Source: Podarcis vaucheri (taxonomy: Eukaryota). From it: DNA of 64,000 nucleotides. Positions within the stretch are counted from its first letter, which is position 1. Each line of letters begins with the position of its first letter. The stretch is taken from assembly GCA_965113315.1 (NCBI GenBank), contig OZ220369.1; one strand, given 5' to 3'. The notes below the pieces were generated by a model that saw only the letters and a program-made list of their open reading frames with translations, had not been told where the DNA came from and did no database searches. The translations under genes and the position numbers were made by a program. Positions 3,421-40,600 of the stretch are shown piece after piece.

Positions 3421-5336
3421 CCCGGGGAAACATACCTGGCGCCATCAGTATCAGATTTCATATGACAGGCTAAAACCGTATTCATTCCCCATGCTTTTGG
3501 TTGCAAACATGGATCATGCTTTGGTACAGTTTCTGGCTTGATTCATAGCATTCATTTTTTAGTAGAGTGGGATAGGATTTGTCCTTTTTATACTTCTTGT
3601 TCGATGAGCACCCATGGAATTCTTTTCTATTGTGTTTTCGCTATGTATTTAATTTTTAAATGATTGCCAAGCCCTTTTGTATTTTATGGATTCGTAAGTC
3701 ACTTGGAGACATCTTCTTGTAGAGATGAAATAATAATAATGGTAATAATAATAATAGTAATAGACAGTCACTGGAGTACTAGACACATACTAAAGACTGT
3801 GATACGAAAGACCTCCCCACTGAGCATTCAGTGTTTTTATTCATCCCATAATAACTCTGCTAACCTACCTGACTCTAGGAATCATTTCAAGGCAAGTCTT
3901 GCCTGTCTTCCTGGTACTTGATACATATTCGGAGGCAGAGTATAAATTGTGGCTATTGAAAAGAGACTGGTGGAAGGAGAAAGGATCCAGTCTAGGGTGG
4001 CAAAGTGGACCTGCCTCATAATCCCTCTTCAATGTTTGTGCTAATGATGTATTGATTATTGATTAGAAGGTCATGGAAGTGTATTCCTTTAATCCAGTTG
4101 GTGGATCTTCCATTTCCAAACATCTCTTTCACATATTTCCCTCTTTCTCTCCCAGTTCTTTAATATCAACAAGCTGCTTCATATTTTACACCTGGGAGGA
4201 AAAAAAATTCCTGAGTATCAAATGCACTCGTGCATAGAGTAATTTGTTAATGTTGTGTTGATTTTATTAATATTACATTGAACAGCTTGGCTGTGCCCAG
4301 TGGAATGTTTGACTTTTCCTTTTTAAACAGCAGACCTCCGAGCCAAATGGCAAACTGCTTTTCACGCCCCTCCTTTGAAATTTCATAAGAACAGAAGAGG
4401 CTGGATACTGGATCAGGCCAAAGGTCCATCTCATCCAGCATCCTGTTCTCACAGTGGCTAGCCAGATGTCTGTGGGGAACTCACACGCAGTTTCAAACAA
4501 CTGATATTAATAAACATTACTTCCCCTGACTGTGGGGGCAGAGCATAGCCACTGCGTCTAGTAGCTATCAATAGCCTTACCCTCCCATAACTAAACAGTG
4601 CTTACATCTGGCACCATGGTCTGTGGAGAGCTGGCCTTAAATATACAAGCATTTGAAGTTTTTGTGTTTGTTTGTACACATAGTAATAGTGTGGTGCTTC
4701 TTTAGATTCAGATGATAGTATCTTGGGTGAACTATAATCTATAGACCTTCAGTTTTCATTTTGTAATAAAGAGTAAGTTTCTAGCATTTGTAGACCCTGA
4801 GATATGATGAAACACATACAAGCACTATTATTTTCAATTTTTATTTTTTGTGTGTGAGAAATTAGTCTGCTCCCAGCTTTCATTGTTTTACTACCACCAC
4901 CATCTCACCACCACCAAAAAATCTCTATGGGTAGTATTTAAGTTTGTCACAGATCTGAAAGAATGGAGAAATAAAGTATGGCATTGGACTTCCCCACACT
5001 CCCTTGACCAGTGGGTGTAGAAGGTTATTTGAGTAAGTAACAGCCACAGGTAACTGATCTGCCTGGAAAACAGCAATTTGGATGAGGCCTAATGTCACTA
5101 GGGATGACTAAGGAAATTGATTTCTGTGGATTCTAATACAAAGTGACATCCTAAGTTTTTGTGTGGATCAGAACTCATTTATCAGATTTCACTCTTTCCA
5201 AATGTTCCAACACCATTCTTGGCTGAAAACACTCTTATACTGAGAGAAAATATGGTTAGAAATTTATATTTTGAGAGAAAGTATTTTTTTAGAAAAATAC
5301 ATATTAATGTAATATTGAAATGCAAATTGGGTGTAT

Positions 5337-5383
<47 letters not shown>

Positions 5384-5459
5384 CGACGTGAGACCTCGTC
5401 GAAACGTCGCACAGACACCCCGACTCTTACACGGGAAGACACCCGAAGACACCAAAACC

Positions 5460-5509
<50 letters not shown>

Positions 5510-5592
5510 CTTTCGTAGATTTTCACGGGTACAGGAATGCAGGTTTTGGTGTCTTCGGGTGTATTCCCGTGTAAGAGTTGGGGTGTCTGGGC

Positions 5593-5626
5593 GACGTTTC
5601 GACGAGGTCTCACTCGTCATCTTCAG
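5593..5626 (-). ncRNA. Minimal hammerhead-ribozyme-like motif (copy in the 3' pLTR)
   Basis: Exact reverse complement of 6825-6858. Confidence 0.7.
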
Positions 5627-5863
5627 GCTGGTGCTTTCGGCTTCTTGTTACTGGAACAGAGCAGGATCTTAGTGTTTGAGTTCCTATAAATACTGTTGAG
5701 GGGGTGTGGTGTATAGCCTCCAACGTTCTGGGCAGAGAGGAAGTTCCTAGATTAGTGTGCCTTTTCTTCTTTTGTTCCTTAATTACTTGAGGGATATCTT
5801 GAGTGATTTCATGAGTGATATTCTGAATACCACTTAGGTGGGTCATTAAGTGTGGATTAGTTG

Positions 5864-6672
5864 CTAAAGCTTTCGTGTCTTGACCTCTTGAGCTTGTGAA
5901 GAGTTTTTCGAAGATGGCTGTGCTGCATTTAGTTGTGCTCTGGCTTGGCTTCGTGTATAGGGGCGAGCTGTGGTTTTGTGCCCTGTGCCAGCCAGATCTG
6001 TGTAGGGATTGCAGGGGGGTGCAGCATCCGGAGGTGCCACTATAGTTTGGCTACTGGATGGAGTTTGTAATTTATCTGTGGAGAGGGTCTGGGTTTGGGT
6101 CTGGTGTGGTTGATTGGTGACGGCGTTCTGTGTGCCTCTGGTTCTGGTGTCGGTTTTTGTGGGGAGGGCTAATTTCCAGATGTCTGGCAGGCGGGACGTG
6201 TCGTCACGCTTGTTCATGTTGTGAGGGTGTTTCTCTATCTCGATGGCTTCCATGATTATTCTCTTGTGGTGATGTTCCATGTTAAAGAGCAATTTGGAAT
6301 CTGCAAAATTAATTTCGTGTCCTGTTTCTTTCATGTGTTGGAAAAGAGAGGAAGTTTTTTCTTCTTTTTTGACGGCATTCTTGTGTTCTGCGATACGTGC
6401 ATTTATTCGTCTGTTTGTTTGTCCAATGTACGTGGCTGGGCAGACTTTGCAGGGTATTTCATAGACCCCTTGGTTTTCCAACTGGATTTTGTCTTTGGGG
6501 TTTCTGAGGATATTGGCTATTTTTTGGTTGGTGCAGAAGGCTGTTTTGATATTGTGTTTATGGAGGATTTTGCTAATTTTATCTGTAGTGCCCTTGATAT
6601 AAGGAAGGAGGGCCATGCCATTGTTTTCTTCTGTGTCTTGGTTTTTGGGGGGTGTTTCTTTTTGGATTAGCT
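5864..6672 (-). CDS. 5'-truncated Penelope-like element ORF: RT thumb/linker plus GIY-YIG endonuclease and a C-terminal extension
   Basis: ORF 5864..6706 contains LPYIKGTTDKISKIL...QGVYEIPCKVCPATYIGQTNRRINARIAEHK...EAIEI...NKRD, the typical PLE GIY-YIG motifs. The first ~11 codons come from junction DNA. Confidence 0.93.
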
Positions 6673-6824
6673 TGGTAACCCTGGTAACCCCTTGGTAACC
6701 CCTCAACAGTAACCCCTCAACAGGGGTTGAGGGGTTACTGTTGGTAACCCCTCAACAGTATTTATAGGAACTCAAACACTAAGATCCTGCTCTGTTCCAG
6801 TAACAAGAAGCCGAAAGCACCAGC

Positions 6825-6858
6825 CTGAAGATGACGAGTGAGACCTCGTCGAAACGTC
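6825..6858 (+). ncRNA. Minimal hammerhead-ribozyme-like motif in the Penelope pLTR
   Basis: CTGAAGA-T-GACGAG-tgagac-CTCGTC-GAAAC-GTC: CUGANGA box, 6-bp helix II, GAAA box and GUC triplet, with a palindromic ACGT in place of helix III. Confidence 0.7.
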
Positions 6859-6909
6859 GCCCAGACACCCCAACTCTTACACGGGAATACACCCGAAGAC
6901 ACCAAAACC

Positions 6910-6951
<42 letters not shown>

Positions 6952-7062
6952 CTTTCGTAGATTTTCACGGGTATAGGAATGCAGGTTTTGGTGTCTTCGG
7001 GTGTCTTCCCGTGTAAGAGTCGGGGTGTCTGTGCGACGTTTCGACGAGGTCTCTGAAGATGA

Positions 7063-7096
7063 CTGAAGATGACGAGTGAGACCTCGTCGAAACGTC
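7063..7096 (+). ncRNA. Minimal hammerhead-ribozyme-like motif (third copy)
   Basis: CTGAAGATGACGAGTGAGACCTCGTCGAAACGTC, core identical to the other two copies. Confidence 0.65.
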
Positions 7097-7129
7097 GCAC
7101 AGACACCCCGACTCTTACACGGGAAGACA

Positions 7130-7273
7130 NNNNNNNNNNNNNNNNNNNNNNNNNNNNNNNNNNNNNNNNNNNNNNNNNNNNNNNNNNNNNNNNNNNNNNN
7201 NNNNNNNNNNNNNNNNNNNNNNNNNNNNNNNNNNNNNNNNNNNNNNNNNNNNNNNNNNNNNNNNNNNNNNNNN
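7130..7273. other. Assembly gap (others at 25767-25897 and 38699-38846)
   Basis: N runs. Confidence 1.
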
Positions 7274-8645
7274 ACAGAAATGGAATGGCAAGGGCTTATG
7301 AATGTGAAGACATGAGGAGGTGACGTAGCAAAAATAAATAAATAAAAAATCCATCCCTAAATGTCTTCGGTGGGGAGCATGTCTCATCTCCCCACAGCAG
7401 AAGACACCCTGTTCTTAGAGTGGCTGACCAGATGCCCCAATGGGAAGCAGAACCCAAGTGAAACAGCATTCCTCGCCCAATCAGGTTTCTAGCAACTGTT
7501 ATTCAGAAACATTACTGCCTCCAAAAGTGGAAGCAGAGCATATCCATCATGGCTAACAGCCACCAATAGCCCTCTCCTCCTCCATGTATTTGTCTAATCC
7601 TCTTTTAAAGCCATTTAGGTGGTGGCTATCATTGCCTCTCGTGGGAGTGAGTTCCATAGTTCCATTGCTACTTTGCATTCCAATCTTTAATTCTACGTTC
7701 TTTGCACAAGAGGGGAATGAGGTCAGCCACTGCTTCATGATCCATCCCATGACCTAGGCAGGATCCATGCCTTCTGAAACTGAAGTCGTTTAGATGTTTT
7801 AATCTGTCTGTTCCCTGCATTCCAGCCCCTTTTCTGGACTGTGTTTTTCTTCCTTAGCACACAGGGATGCAACCCCCCCCCAACAATTCTGTACTCCGTG
7901 CCTGCGTGCAAATTAAGGGTTGAGTTGTGCCAAATTGTTCCTCCAGCTTGTTCCGCACTCTTTACATTTCCTCCGTGTTTCCCAGCAAAATGAAATCATT
8001 AAATACACAGCGCAAATTACTAAACCTGTTCCATAATCACACACACACACATAATTGACAGGGTAAGAAGCTCAGATTGCAGCAAGGCATGCAGCAAAAT
8101 GTTTATGGCTGAGTCTTCTCCTCTCCCCCCCCCCAAGTTTAAAGGTCAACAAGAATATTTTTCTATAATTTGACAGGCACACGAGAAGTAACGCGACTCA
8201 TTTGTGGTCAGGTAATTCACAAAGAAATCTATAAATCAAGCTAAGAGGAATATTAGATCATGCTCATATCTGAACCCATCTGGCTCGGTTCAAGAAAGAA
8301 ATCAATAAGAGACAGGACGCTCGGAATTACCAATGATTTATGCCCTTGCATCCTGGGAGAGGAACATTTGCAGTTTGAGAGTCTCCTCCTCTGAGGGATG
8401 GCCTCTTTGCCCATGCAGTCATTTGGGGGAAGGAAATATTTTCAAAGGCACCAGTGATGCCATGTGACTTCCCAAGTGGTGTGCCCCAGGAGCTCCAACA
8501 ACATTGCAGAGGATTTTTGGGTACTCCTCTCAGATCATGTGGCACAGCAATTTGGACAGCATAATGTCTTGGGACTGTCCCTGCAACTACGCTCACAGGG
8601 ATAGGGTGTGGGTGGGTGCAACGGTAACTGTGCGGTCTCTTACAG

Positions 8646-25766: not shown

Positions 25767-27139
25767 NNNNNNNNNNNNNNNNNNNNNNNNNNNNNNNNNN
25801 NNNNNNNNNNNNNNNNNNNNNNNNNNNNNNNNNNNNNNNNNNNNNNNNNNNNNNNNNNNNNNNNNNNNNNNNNNNNNNNNNNNNNNNNNNNNNNNNNGGT
25901 CATAGAACTGTAGAGTTGGAAAGGGTCCCAACGGACTAAATCACAACTAAAGAATTCCTGATAGATGGCCATCCAACCTCTGTTTAAAACCTCCCGTGGA
26001 GGAGAGTCCACCACCTTCTTAGGTACATTAGTTTACTGTGGTTTTGTGGATGCAATCTAATGTGTTGATCTTCTGAATGCATAACATCCTGGTTTGCTCT
26101 GAACTCTACAAGCCTTTCCAAGAACTTTCCAAGCCTCCTGTTTGGAAATTGGGGGTATGCCTTCCACCTCGCTCTCTTTCTCTGTTCCCTTTCTATGTGA
26201 CAATGCTTCGTATGCAAGAGGGGTCACTGCAGTTTATTCCTGAACGAATTGTTTCAACCCTTGTCTATGCTGCGTGGTGGGTGTGCAAGGGTTCTCTGTA
26301 TATCAGCTACATATAAATGCCTTTTGAAGATCACACTCAGGGAAAGGTTTTCAAGCACAGTTGCAAAGATGGATAAATAGAGGGTCAGATTCAAAAGCAA
26401 AACACACACACACCCTTACCTACCTGCTGTGCTCAGTAGGAATATTATACCTAGTTATGTGGTGGAATCTCAGCACGATTCTCCAGCCACTCCCTGATGT
26501 ATGCAGGAAGCTATCTTCAGGATAAAGCTGTAATTTCCACCCCAGGGTGCATGCCTGACTCCAGTCATTGTTACCCTCTGAAAAAGGGTACTCAGCTGGC
26601 ACACTGCTATCTGCAGCCACAGGAGTTCCTTTAATAGCATCTCTGATTTGTGGTATTAAACAATGTGCAGCAACTCACAATGCCCAACTGCTGGATATCC
26701 AGGTTGGTCCACTTCACAATGCATTACCAAAGGCTGATGAACGGAGAAAACTGACAGATGAGTGGAGTAGACAAGCTTCCTACAGGAGCAGGCATTGAGG
26801 GTGTGACTGGATTCTTCTGCAGGGCAGAGCCCCGGGGAGCAGAGAAATGCTGAAAGCTCCAAGTCAGGTCATAAGAACTTAAACCTACTGGATCAGGCAA
26901 ATGGCCTATCTAGTCCAGCATCCTGTTCTTGCAGTGACCGACCAGATACTTGCAGGAAGCCTGCAAGCTGGACAGAAGCACAACAGCGCACTCTCCACCT
27001 GTGATTCCCTGCCCCTGACTGTGGTGGTTGAACATGGCCTTGTCTCTCCTTCCCCTTGGATATCTTGGTTGCCCTTTTTTGAACCTTTTCCCAGCTCTGC
27101 AACATCATTTTTGAGGTCCCCTTCTCTGGGGGGAGAACT

Positions 27140-37630: not shown

Positions 37631-40600
37631 GTTAGACTTTGGTTTTAACATATTATCTTCTCATGTTTTTCCCCCCACCTGAATTGTTTGTTTGGACAAA
37701 ATCATTCTCCTTGGTGAGAAATGTTCATGGTGACCAAGAGGTCTGTATTTGTCTGTTGGAAATGTTCATATTGTCAAGTGAAGGAAGGTTTCTCTCCCCC
37801 CTCTCCCAGTTAAATATGCTTGCAGTGAGTTTTCATGGAGGGAGAAGGCACATCAGAAAAGCACTGTCTGAAGTGCTTCCCCCCTCTTTAAAAGGGATTG
37901 GGAATTGGAGTGAGCTGCGAAGGAAAGGGTGGGCAAGTGGTGAGGGGATTTGCAAGAAGGTGGGTGAGATGTCAAGGGAGGGGGTTGCTCAGGCATGGGG
38001 GAAAGTTGGTTGGCAATGGGGTTGGTAGGTAGGCAGGGTTGCTGAATGGAACGAGCAGGGTCCGCAGCCCCTTGCTCAGTATAAAAATGAAAACAGAAAA
38101 ATTCAACACAGCCTGGTTCTCGCTACAAACAGTGTGATCTGCCACTTATGCACTACCAAAGCACACAATTGTTCTCCATCAAGTGATACCGGTTTAATGG
38201 AGGTTGATGTGTATGAAGAGACCCAGTTATCCCCTTCTATCCCTCCTTCATAGCTGAACAGATTTGCACCACTTCCGGATTGCACCTGAACATCTGCCTC
38301 AAAACTAGATGCGTCCTCGTTCTCCATGCATCCCACCTCCTCAAAAGTAGAGCAGAATTATACTCTGGAGGAGAGAGTCATTGCTCATTGTTAATGCATT
38401 CAGTCCAGTTTAATTTGGGATAGTGTAGCTTATAAAACAAGGTTAATAAAAGATGGTCTGCTTCCTTCACATTCTCTGTCTGCTCTAGAAAGTGTTCTTT
38501 ATTGTTTTTAGCCCGAGCAACCACGATACAAAACCCTTGATGTACTACTTAAGCCAGAATAAAACGAGAGTCATAAAACTTTAAGTAATGCTTACATTAC
38601 TTTCCGTCAGCAAAGTGCTCCTGACAGTAGCTGTTTGTGTTGATTTGTTACCATTCATTTATCCTTTCCCCGTGCTTCACACTGCAACCTAATTGTAANN
38701 NNNNNNNNNNNNNNNNNNNNNNNNNNNNNNNNNNNNNNNNNNNNNNNNNNNNNNNNNNNNNNNNNNNNNNNNNNNNNNNNNNNNNNNNNNNNNNNNNNNN
38801 NNNNNNNNNNNNNNNNNNNNNNNNNNNNNNNNNNNNNNNNNNNNNNCTATATAGATAGATAGATATTCCCCAGAATGGTGGTGGTTGTACTTAGAGCCTC
38901 AGCCCGCCCCCTTTTCTGGTAGTTGACAAACATCCTGATACTTAGACTTTGGTACCTGACATTCACTCTTAACAGGAACAGTTTTTGATGGACAGCACTT
39001 TGCAAAGAACAAAACAGATTTTGTGAATGTCTGCATTAACTGTGGAACGTATTTCGTTGGCTATGACAAGCGTAGTAGCTTCACTGAGAGCAGATACTTG
39101 TAGGGATGTTATTACAAAAGAATGGCGGAATGAAAATTTATAGGGCTGCTCTGAATGCTCTGCATTTCCAGCATTTGCTTCGGAAACAATATATTGGAGG
39201 GAGCTAAAGAGGCTGCCACATCCCACTCCCACCTTTCCTTCTGAATATTTGTATCCTTCTGTCCTGCTTTTCTGGGCTTGCTCACATGTTACACTTACAG
39301 AGGTGTGAGCTGTTTCTACGCACGTGCAAGTGTTTGTGTGAAAGGGTCTGTACTTGTTGATTTGTACAGCTCAGCCATCGCATGCACAGACTGTGCAGCC
39401 ATTGAGTGGAATGTTTGAGAACCCCAGCTGTCTTTTCCTGCCAGTGGCTGCTGTTCTTCCTTGGCCATGAAGGCTCTTGGCTTCTTTCTCCACCCCGTTG
39501 CTGAATCAAAGGGGCTGTAGTCTTGTTCACAGGTGCCCATGATGTTATTAGTTTAGATACAGTGCTGTGAAATTATCAGCAAAATCTTGGGGAACGCCAA
39601 CAGGATTAAGTGGTTGCGTTGGCAAATGAGGTGAAGGACTATGAGGTGAGGAAGGAGGAAAATGGCTTCAATGAGAAGTGCTGTACCAAACCTATGTACA
39701 TGTCTTTGTAGTTGAGGACATGAGAGAGGAGCGGCGGGGGGGGGGTAGGAGGTGCTTTTCAACATGAAACGAAGTAAGACAGCCTTTCCAGTGCTTTCCT
39801 AGAAATTAGTTTTGATACTGGTATATATGAGACGGTAATGGAAGTGAAGGGAGTGAGAAAGTAGCATCATTGTGATGGAGGGGGCATTCAGACGTGGGGA
39901 ATATTGTGTCAATTTTTCTGGTGATAATGCAAGCACTTTGCTGATGTTCCTTTCACACTGCAACACCTGTTGCATTATGGAATGGTGGGTCTTTTTGACT
40001 GATATACTGGCATGTTGCATGGGTGTAATGCAAAGCAACACCAAATGTCACTGTAGAACATTGCTACTCTCTCGCTCTTCCCACATAGGTCTGCTTCTGG
40101 TCCTCCATTGATTCTCCCATGAAAACAGTAGGAAAGAACTGCATGTGGCTTTACCACCCCACAATTTTCCAGATTAAGGGGGCTGCAAATGTATTTTTTT
40201 CTGGAATCAAATTACACAGAAATGAATGCTCAATGTAAGCTAGATTCCATTAGTTTTCCGGAACTGTCTTTTACATCTTGTGAAAGCTCAAATACAATTT
40301 TGAAATTAGCCGTTTGGTAAACCTTAGGGAAATGGATTAAATCGTTATGTGAATGCAGCCAGATTTCTGTAAATTCTCCTACCTGCATTGGGAGTCCTTC
40401 AGTCCAATGCATAACTATATTTAGTGTCTGTTCTTAAATTTAAAACTGGGGGTTTAAGCCTGTATCTTCAGTGGTGCCTTTCCCTTAAAAAAAAGGAAAC
40501 TTTCCTTCCCTTTTCCTTATTTCCCCCATACTTTATTTATTATATTTCCTTAGGTTCAAATCCCACTTTCTTCCATCATGGAACCCAGGGTGGTATGCTG

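Follow-up and report, generated by a model that had tools for sequence, protein, structure and literature searches.

Among the described systems with which the present locus can be compared is PAc, a Poseidon element of Anolis carolinensis, whose enzyme, when purified, cleaves AT-rich DNA on both strands and extends the two of them (Frangieh et al, 2024; PMC11167929). As described there, reverse transcription starts from two internal RNA sites that are non-homologous to the cut DNA, one of these starts lies at +111-118, and the tail of an insertion is the sequence between the two starts. The same account gives no strand difference in start site and leaves the steps after first-strand synthesis unvalidated (PMC11167929). 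PAc belongs to a different family and comes from another lizard lineage. Common to both are AT-rich targets, a GIY-YIG endonuclease at the C-terminus, an open reading frame (ORF) that starts inside the pseudo-LTR (pLTR) at hammerhead stem II, a ribozyme cut predicted about 26-28 nt after the ATG, and two fixed 3' ends set apart by a tail of some 30 nt, of which the distal end is at +111-118 in PAc and at +112 to +114 here (PMC11167929). In arrangement the two differ: PAc loci are described as tandem (PMC11167929), whereas the array reported here is made of inverted units, joints and repeated hits in a microsatellite.

The locus also resembles the typical unit of Penelope-like elements (PLEs), in which a 5'-truncated body lies next to an inverted truncated copy, a tail of 30-40 nt is present at one end only, and microsatellite targets hide any target-site duplication (PMC8557442, PMC3846280). 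How such inverted units form is an open question according to Craig et al (2021; PMC8557442). In the accounts given in these two papers, resolution by the endonuclease is made responsible for the tail, and self-priming for the inversion, whereas the present array has an iterated joint templated from both ends; a bias towards (TA)n is stated there for Naiad and Neptune with an extra zinc finger, whereas the protein described here is without that finger. Short pieces of flanking sequence in direct and reverse-complement orientation, as in the joint of our unit B, are known from polymerase-theta end joining (Chan et al, 2010; PMC2895639). Those scars were found at transposon-excision and I-SceI breaks, whereas here they would lie between two retroelement cDNAs, and the 64 nt of joint B are at the long end for polymerase-theta inserts. 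Short hammerhead-bearing units derived from pLTRs, such as occur here, have further been described as non-LTR retrozymes, which form head-to-tail tandems, whereas the present array is alternating and inverted and includes coding sequence (bioRxiv 10.64898/2026.07.22.740005). A retrozyme identity, for which the head-to-tail tandem is the criterion, was rejected because the orientation of the pieces alternates. In LINE-1 twin priming, both target ends prime cDNA and the product is a head-to-head inversion closed by a microhomology join, the second priming taking place at a variable internal position and the two arms hardly overlapping. In contrast to this, the second start is fixed at the present locus and the pLTR is duplicated.

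A cluster of young Penelope-type insertions

Re-examination of the window, the 64-kb stretch of DNA analysed here, revealed five pLTR pieces at 5340-7129 in the order + - + - + (one repeat, three (AT)n tracts), with the alternating orientation that a preliminary description had claimed (Table 1). Element positions are counted from the ATG inside the pLTR (+1), which corresponds to 5620 on the - strand and 6831 on the + strand; in this numbering the long - arm of unit B covers -1063 to +114. Solo arm A1 and unit B, which carry different variants of the pLTR, are in tail-to-tail contact across the (AT)22 tract. Apart from the three tracts (42, 44 and 36 nt), the 64 kb contain no alternating AT run of at least 12 nt, and a motif and repeat scan found no second PLE copy or hammerhead motif elsewhere in the window. 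Some details had to be corrected: (AT)n separates the units as described, but not pieces 4 and 5, between which there is a 10-nt duplication instead; the two common arms of unit B, given too short before, each comprise 167 nt and are 100% complementary; and the last piece starts at 7063, not at 7076. The 144-N gap that follows is predicted to contain the last 21 nt of the A2 arm and then (AT)n. Two further gaps (25767-25897, 131 N; 38699-38846, 148 N) indicate that the assembly was probably made from short reads. On both sides of the array (4384-4585 and 7485-7660) there are old copies of another dispersed repeat, whose copies are 70-80% alike and numerous in the window.

Table 1. Features of the array, with positions in the window and in the element (+1, ATG inside the pLTR).
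Feature	Window positions	Strand	Element positions	Basis or remark
(AT)21 tract, left target remnant	5340..5381			sequence
A1 5' joint	5381..5388	+		8-nt inverted copy of 5397-5404, joined to (AT)n
A1 solo pLTR arm, variant A, without tail	5388..5464	+	+8 to +84 (end at +82/84)	
(AT)22 tract between A1 and unit B	5463..5506			
Unit B 30-nt tail	5507..5536	-	+85 to +114	codons of ORF start
Unit B pLTR stretch common to inverted arm	5537..5703	-	-83 to +84	
Minimal type I hammerhead motif	5593..5626	-		motif scan; stem II fold; features in PMC4209133
Minimal type I hammerhead motif, further copies	6825-6858; 7063-7096	+		motif scan
ORF 3' part, 272 codons, GIY-YIG endonuclease with CCHH-type residues	5867..6683	-		5'-truncated at 6683
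Unit B head-to-head joint, 64 nt	6684..6747			composed of seven pieces, templated locally by the ends of the two arms; 18-bp hairpin
Unit B inverted arm, identical to - arm, without tail	6748..6914	+	-83 to +84 (end at +82/84)	
(AT)18 tract separating unit B from A2	6913..6948			
A2 tailed arm, variant A	6949..7053	-	+114 down to +10	
A2 head-to-head joint	7053..7062	+		10-nt tandem duplication of + arm start
A2 inverted arm, cut by gap	7063..7129	+	-6 to +61	
144-N gap, directly after array	7130..7273			

The Penelope-like identity proposed before is upheld by the GIY-YIG domain, its homologues and the layout of the pLTRs, and the array is a cluster of young Penelope/Poseidon-type insertions. 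The body on the - strand encodes 272 residues with a GIY-YIG domain (Pfam E 3e-4; 21.4 bits, just below the cut-off of 22.6), and its translation displays two cysteines within the core and two histidines later on (CCHH). A protein search with the endonuclease yielded 32 homologues at E ≤ 1e-10, the best of which are 98% identical over the 174 residues searched and include a Podarcis muralis protein that has the reverse transcriptase in the same ORF; next in order are snake, agamid and beetle proteins. Judged by these relatives, the host is probably a lacertid lizard. Through its 5' truncation the window copy is devoid of the reverse transcriptase, which the relative P0003 (98% identical) does contain (RVT_1, E 4e-16; DKG motif visible). 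As reads show the native ORF running past 6683, the truncation point is fixed at this position. The extra CX2-5CxxC finger upstream of GIY-YIG, a feature of Neptune, Nematis and Naiad (PMC8557442), is absent from the window protein, so that by domain make-up the element fits Penelope/Poseidon. Inverted pLTRs, a tail at one end and an AT-repeat target, all expected of such elements, are also borne out: an adjacent inverted 5'-truncated copy is present in units B and A2, the 30-nt tail is confined to the - arms, and there are three (AT)n tracts.

The pLTR includes the first codons of the ORF (ATG at 5620, 38 open codons to the end of the tail). By eye, the N-terminus encoded there resembles those of the relatives P0019 and P0030; a protein search with this peptide gave no match among five candidates. 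At the other end of the ORF (5867-5915), the frame differs from that of P0003, the family is polymorphic for indels at 5893 and 5909, and the C-terminus past the endonuclease looks variable. Metagenome contigs scanned with 20-nt words contained one match, due to chance and without further likeness, and viral contigs contained no relative of the element.

To the family at large we mapped the query 5497-6765, using contigs of three sequencing runs (X1, X3 and X7) and RNA reads of a fourth with another species label (X23). The family is abundant (7937, 1495 and 11534 contigs mapped in the three contig runs), half or more of the words of 4600-6790 are found in 12 of the 24 listed runs under seven organism labels, and near-identical copies exist in several related species. 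Because the mapped runs differ from the window at near-fixed sites, they appear to represent other animals. Runs X1 and X3 share an organism label and differ from each other at near-fixed sites (e.g. 5589, 5811, 5827), which suggests distinct subfamilies or lineages.

A minimal hammerhead motif, with a helix II of 6 bp and with the ATG in its core, is present in every pLTR that extends to -6. Compared with the features collected in PMC4209133, the motif has the conserved core, the extra base before helix II, a G-C first pair, palindromic 15.2-16.2 and a long helix II, and would be cut after +28. Helix I has, by eye, only 2 bp compared with the 4-5 bp of the criterion; a helix I of 2 bp is reported for D. 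virilis (PMC4209133). Rfam returned no hammerhead among 69 matches up to E 10, and the matches themselves, hairpin-driven microRNA families below their gathering scores, were dismissed. Among the 473 RNA reads mapped, read ends did not pile up at the predicted cut. One X1 contig exits the element at +29 (5592), the base after that cut, and continues with a short upstream-pLTR piece in opposite orientation and then (AT)n. The + arm of A2 starts at -6 (7063), the first base of the hammerhead core, and in RNA reads of organism E groups of 7 and 8 leave the element at about -7 and -9 (5627, 5629); 5' ends at this upstream edge could mark where an RNA begins, where a splice acceptor lies or where a cDNA came to a halt. 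The loop of hammerhead stem II, which may act as a pause site, is the stopping place of two of the five inner ends (+8 and +10; 5388 and 7053).

Fixed ends and source copies

Both complete + copies end at CTGC and then enter (AT)n, and both - copies have the 30-nt tail before (AT)n, exactly as first described. The complete arms thus have two ends that are 30 nt apart, +82/84 in the two tail-less and +114 in the two tailed arms; the ambiguity of 2 nt at the proximal end (+82 to +84) arises because the element itself reads AT after CTGC. Set beside the PAc data, these positions are likely to be the enzyme's two internal reverse-transcription start sites, the match to the proximal PAc site resting on tail length. 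Ends at the same element positions together with the known PAc starts support the fixed internal priming site that had been suggested (PMC11167929). Since no strand difference in start site is described for PAc, the data do not imply that a proximal start must pair with a distal one.

The same ends recur in the family. In six contigs of X3 and 11 reads of X23, element sequence gives way to (TA)n at the proximal end, 5537; among the ends listed for X1 and X7, the loose end at 5537 is absent. A form of the distal end two bases shorter runs into AT in 66, 39 and 64 contigs of X1, X3 and X7 (44%, 56% and 46% of depth) and in 23 of 40 reads of X23, and is due either to a second start or to sequence variation within the family. 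As other animals and species show both ends running into (AT)n, the ends are family-wide. At the tail end (5507), relatives have by eye a histidine at the matching codon; given this codon and the AT two bases earlier in about half of the family copies, both ends may share a GCAT context. Within 5497-6765, no site at which many molecules begin or end reached the threshold in the four runs. Folds of the tail-region RNA were unstable across variants (z -1.9 and -1.1), for which reason we claim no structure there.

The two pLTR variants of the preliminary description were recovered with precisely its three differing sites (+31, +42 and +58), and a fourth difference between A and B lies at +89, in the tail. 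No mismatch was seen between arms joined head to head (0 of 167 and 0 of 52 positions). Tail-to-tail neighbours across AT have 3 mismatches in 77 and 3 in 75 positions, and the unit of insertion is the head-to-head pair, not a hairpin across the AT tracts. Hairpins around the AT loops, which had been envisaged, can form on paper but pair arms of different insertions. The letter of variant B at +58 makes up less than 1% of depth in X1, X3 and X7 and is found in none of 85 RNA reads of X23, and its presence in both B arms means that they come from one source copy and one event. Other letters of unit B are likewise rare in X1 (5563, 5854, 6065, 6072, 6074 and 6674, where 94-99% of depth reads otherwise). 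At +58 variant A agrees with the majority, and its base at +31 accounts for 61% of X1 depth and is absent from X3; with such bases in the family, A1 and A2 may be one event or two. The three to four differences between A and B support at least two insertions from different source copies, and three are likely.

Joints and the route of integration

Joint B is composed of seven pieces of 4-15 nt in direct or reverse-complement orientation, each of which also occurs in the terminal 20 nt of the left arm, in the initial 20 nt of the right arm or within the joint as it grew. Locally repeated 8-mers cover 97% of its length, compared with a mean of 2% and a maximum of 42% in 500 shuffles, and 77% can be derived solely from the ends of the two arms (no more than 16% in any of 2000 shuffles); it also contains a perfect 18-bp snap-back hairpin. 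The inverted arm of B begins 980 nt from the truncation point (-83 versus -1063). Of the other joints in the array, the 5' joint of A1 is a fold-back at hammerhead stem II and that of A2 has a 1-nt overlap with the - arm. Among the 12 X1 joints listed for other copies, at least five inserts are by eye locally templated (after 5592, 5697, 5829, 5834 and 6298), and four joints run from the element interior straight into the AT margin, like A1. A cluster of X1 joints at 5577-5580 adjoins the variant site 5579 and was discounted as a hot spot. None of the 15 joints listed for other copies changes strand, which leaves head-to-head units undocumented elsewhere in the genome.

In flies, direct and inverted templated inserts depend largely on polymerase theta (PMC2895639); fold-back inserts in yeast also arise without it (PMC11724301), and the reverse transcriptase itself could in principle make them. 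The simplest reading of a joint templated from both arm ends is that two free DNA ends met in the middle of the unit, and the make-up of joint B favours two separately primed cDNAs followed by repair over self-priming. Templated head-to-head joints, which like the hammerhead motifs and the start of the ORF within the pLTR had escaped the preliminary description, are the most informative part of the array, and it is joint B that adds to the literature searched, the fixed ends being mostly a known signature.

We therefore lean, with modest confidence, towards a stack of two or three young insertions with two fixed ends, made by two-sided cDNA priming and host end joining; this explanation rests on one complete unit, B, the outer end of A2 lying in the gap and A1 being one-armed. 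In such a scheme, the endonuclease would cut both strands in AT-rich DNA, as its anole relative does in vitro. By analogy with PAc, one target end would prime at about +112 to +114 and yield the tailed arm, while the other would prime at +82/84 and yield the tail-less arm, both arms of a unit being copied from one source copy, either from two RNAs or from the two pLTRs of a tandem RNA. Both cDNAs would stop early and their free ends would be joined by repeated microhomology-primed synthesis, perhaps by an enzyme of the polymerase-theta type, giving the templated make-up observed. Priming at a single end would leave a stopped cDNA to be joined straight to the repeat, as in A1, and each insertion would leave (AT)n on both sides, open to new hits. 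Extended to a rule for Penelope elements, by which an enzyme dimer cuts (AT)n, one cDNA is made per fixed RNA site and target end, and polymerase theta joins the heads, the scheme is tentative.

The inverted arm might instead go back to a single priming, with self-priming or a template switch on the first cDNA, or on an antisense RNA, producing this arm before the far side of the repeat is joined. Identical arms agree with such a course, as do the palindromes at or near the joints (the hairpin in joint B, stem II beside the A joints), and junction palindromes in rotifers have been read as self-priming on an antisense template (PMC3846280). A simple fold-back, however, does not account for a B arm that starts 980 nt from the truncation point, nor for a joint that holds pieces of both ends; moreover, the arm stops at +82/84, beyond a longer AT match at +57-59, and this stop is common to the solo arm A1 and the loose ends in other animals. 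We consider a single priming rather unlikely. The proposal that the fixed end is set by AT microhomology of the repeat with a site inside the pLTR fared worse than the priming site itself. The AT of the element at +83-84 does give a 2-nt overlap with the repeat at the proximal end, and the shorter distal form one of 1 nt, but between +30 and +114 there are six (B) or five (A2) alternating A/T runs of at least 2 nt, and the longer ones, a 3-nt match at +57-59 in B and a 4-nt match at +88-91 in the A tail, are unused; in addition, the start in vitro is internal and non-homologous to the cut DNA (PMC11167929). Microhomology is thus a distinctly improbable cause, the fixed junction is a published feature and not a new one, and an AT overlap of one to two bases may fine-tune the start but does not choose it.

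The pieces might owe their order to an error of assembly, with fragments of several loci strung together via (AT)n beside the gap; this has to be weighed because the array adjoins 144 N, the family is abundant and such structures are prone to mis-assembly according to Craig et al (PMC8557442). Joint B has zero depth in four of four runs, which fits a private young insertion and would also be possible with an assembly error, but the runs appear to be from other animals and contigs cannot show absence. At the six listed places, furthermore, B has the rare and not the majority letters, unlike a collapsed repeat. Assemblers work with overlaps longer than the 4-15 nt of the joint pieces, which are therefore too short to be mis-joined, and an error of this kind appears improbable. 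Very improbable indeed is one older insertion that was later rearranged through breaks at (AT)n hairpins or cruciforms and microhomology repair: long hairpins across the AT tracts are predicted, and TA repeats do break and undergo microhomology end joining in cancer cells (PMC13645644), yet the arms on either side of an AT tract differ at 3 sites, with a tail on only one of them, and hence are not mutual copies, and it is the 5' ends, remote from the AT tracts, that carry the scrambled joints.

Implications for the Penelope family

Two-ended priming, if true, would explain the inverted pLTR, the one-sided tail and the undefined 5' end of these elements, and microsatellites would be self-renewing landing pads, as fresh (AT)n is left on both sides. 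The question also bears on efforts to insert genes with Penelope enzymes, in which the second end determines what product results. With a young and abundant family of near-identical copies, long-read genomes could settle how the units form by way of their ends and joints. For its class the array is nothing unusual, and nothing points to a host function; its remaining value is that of a natural example whose joint hints at a testable second half of the Penelope integration cycle.
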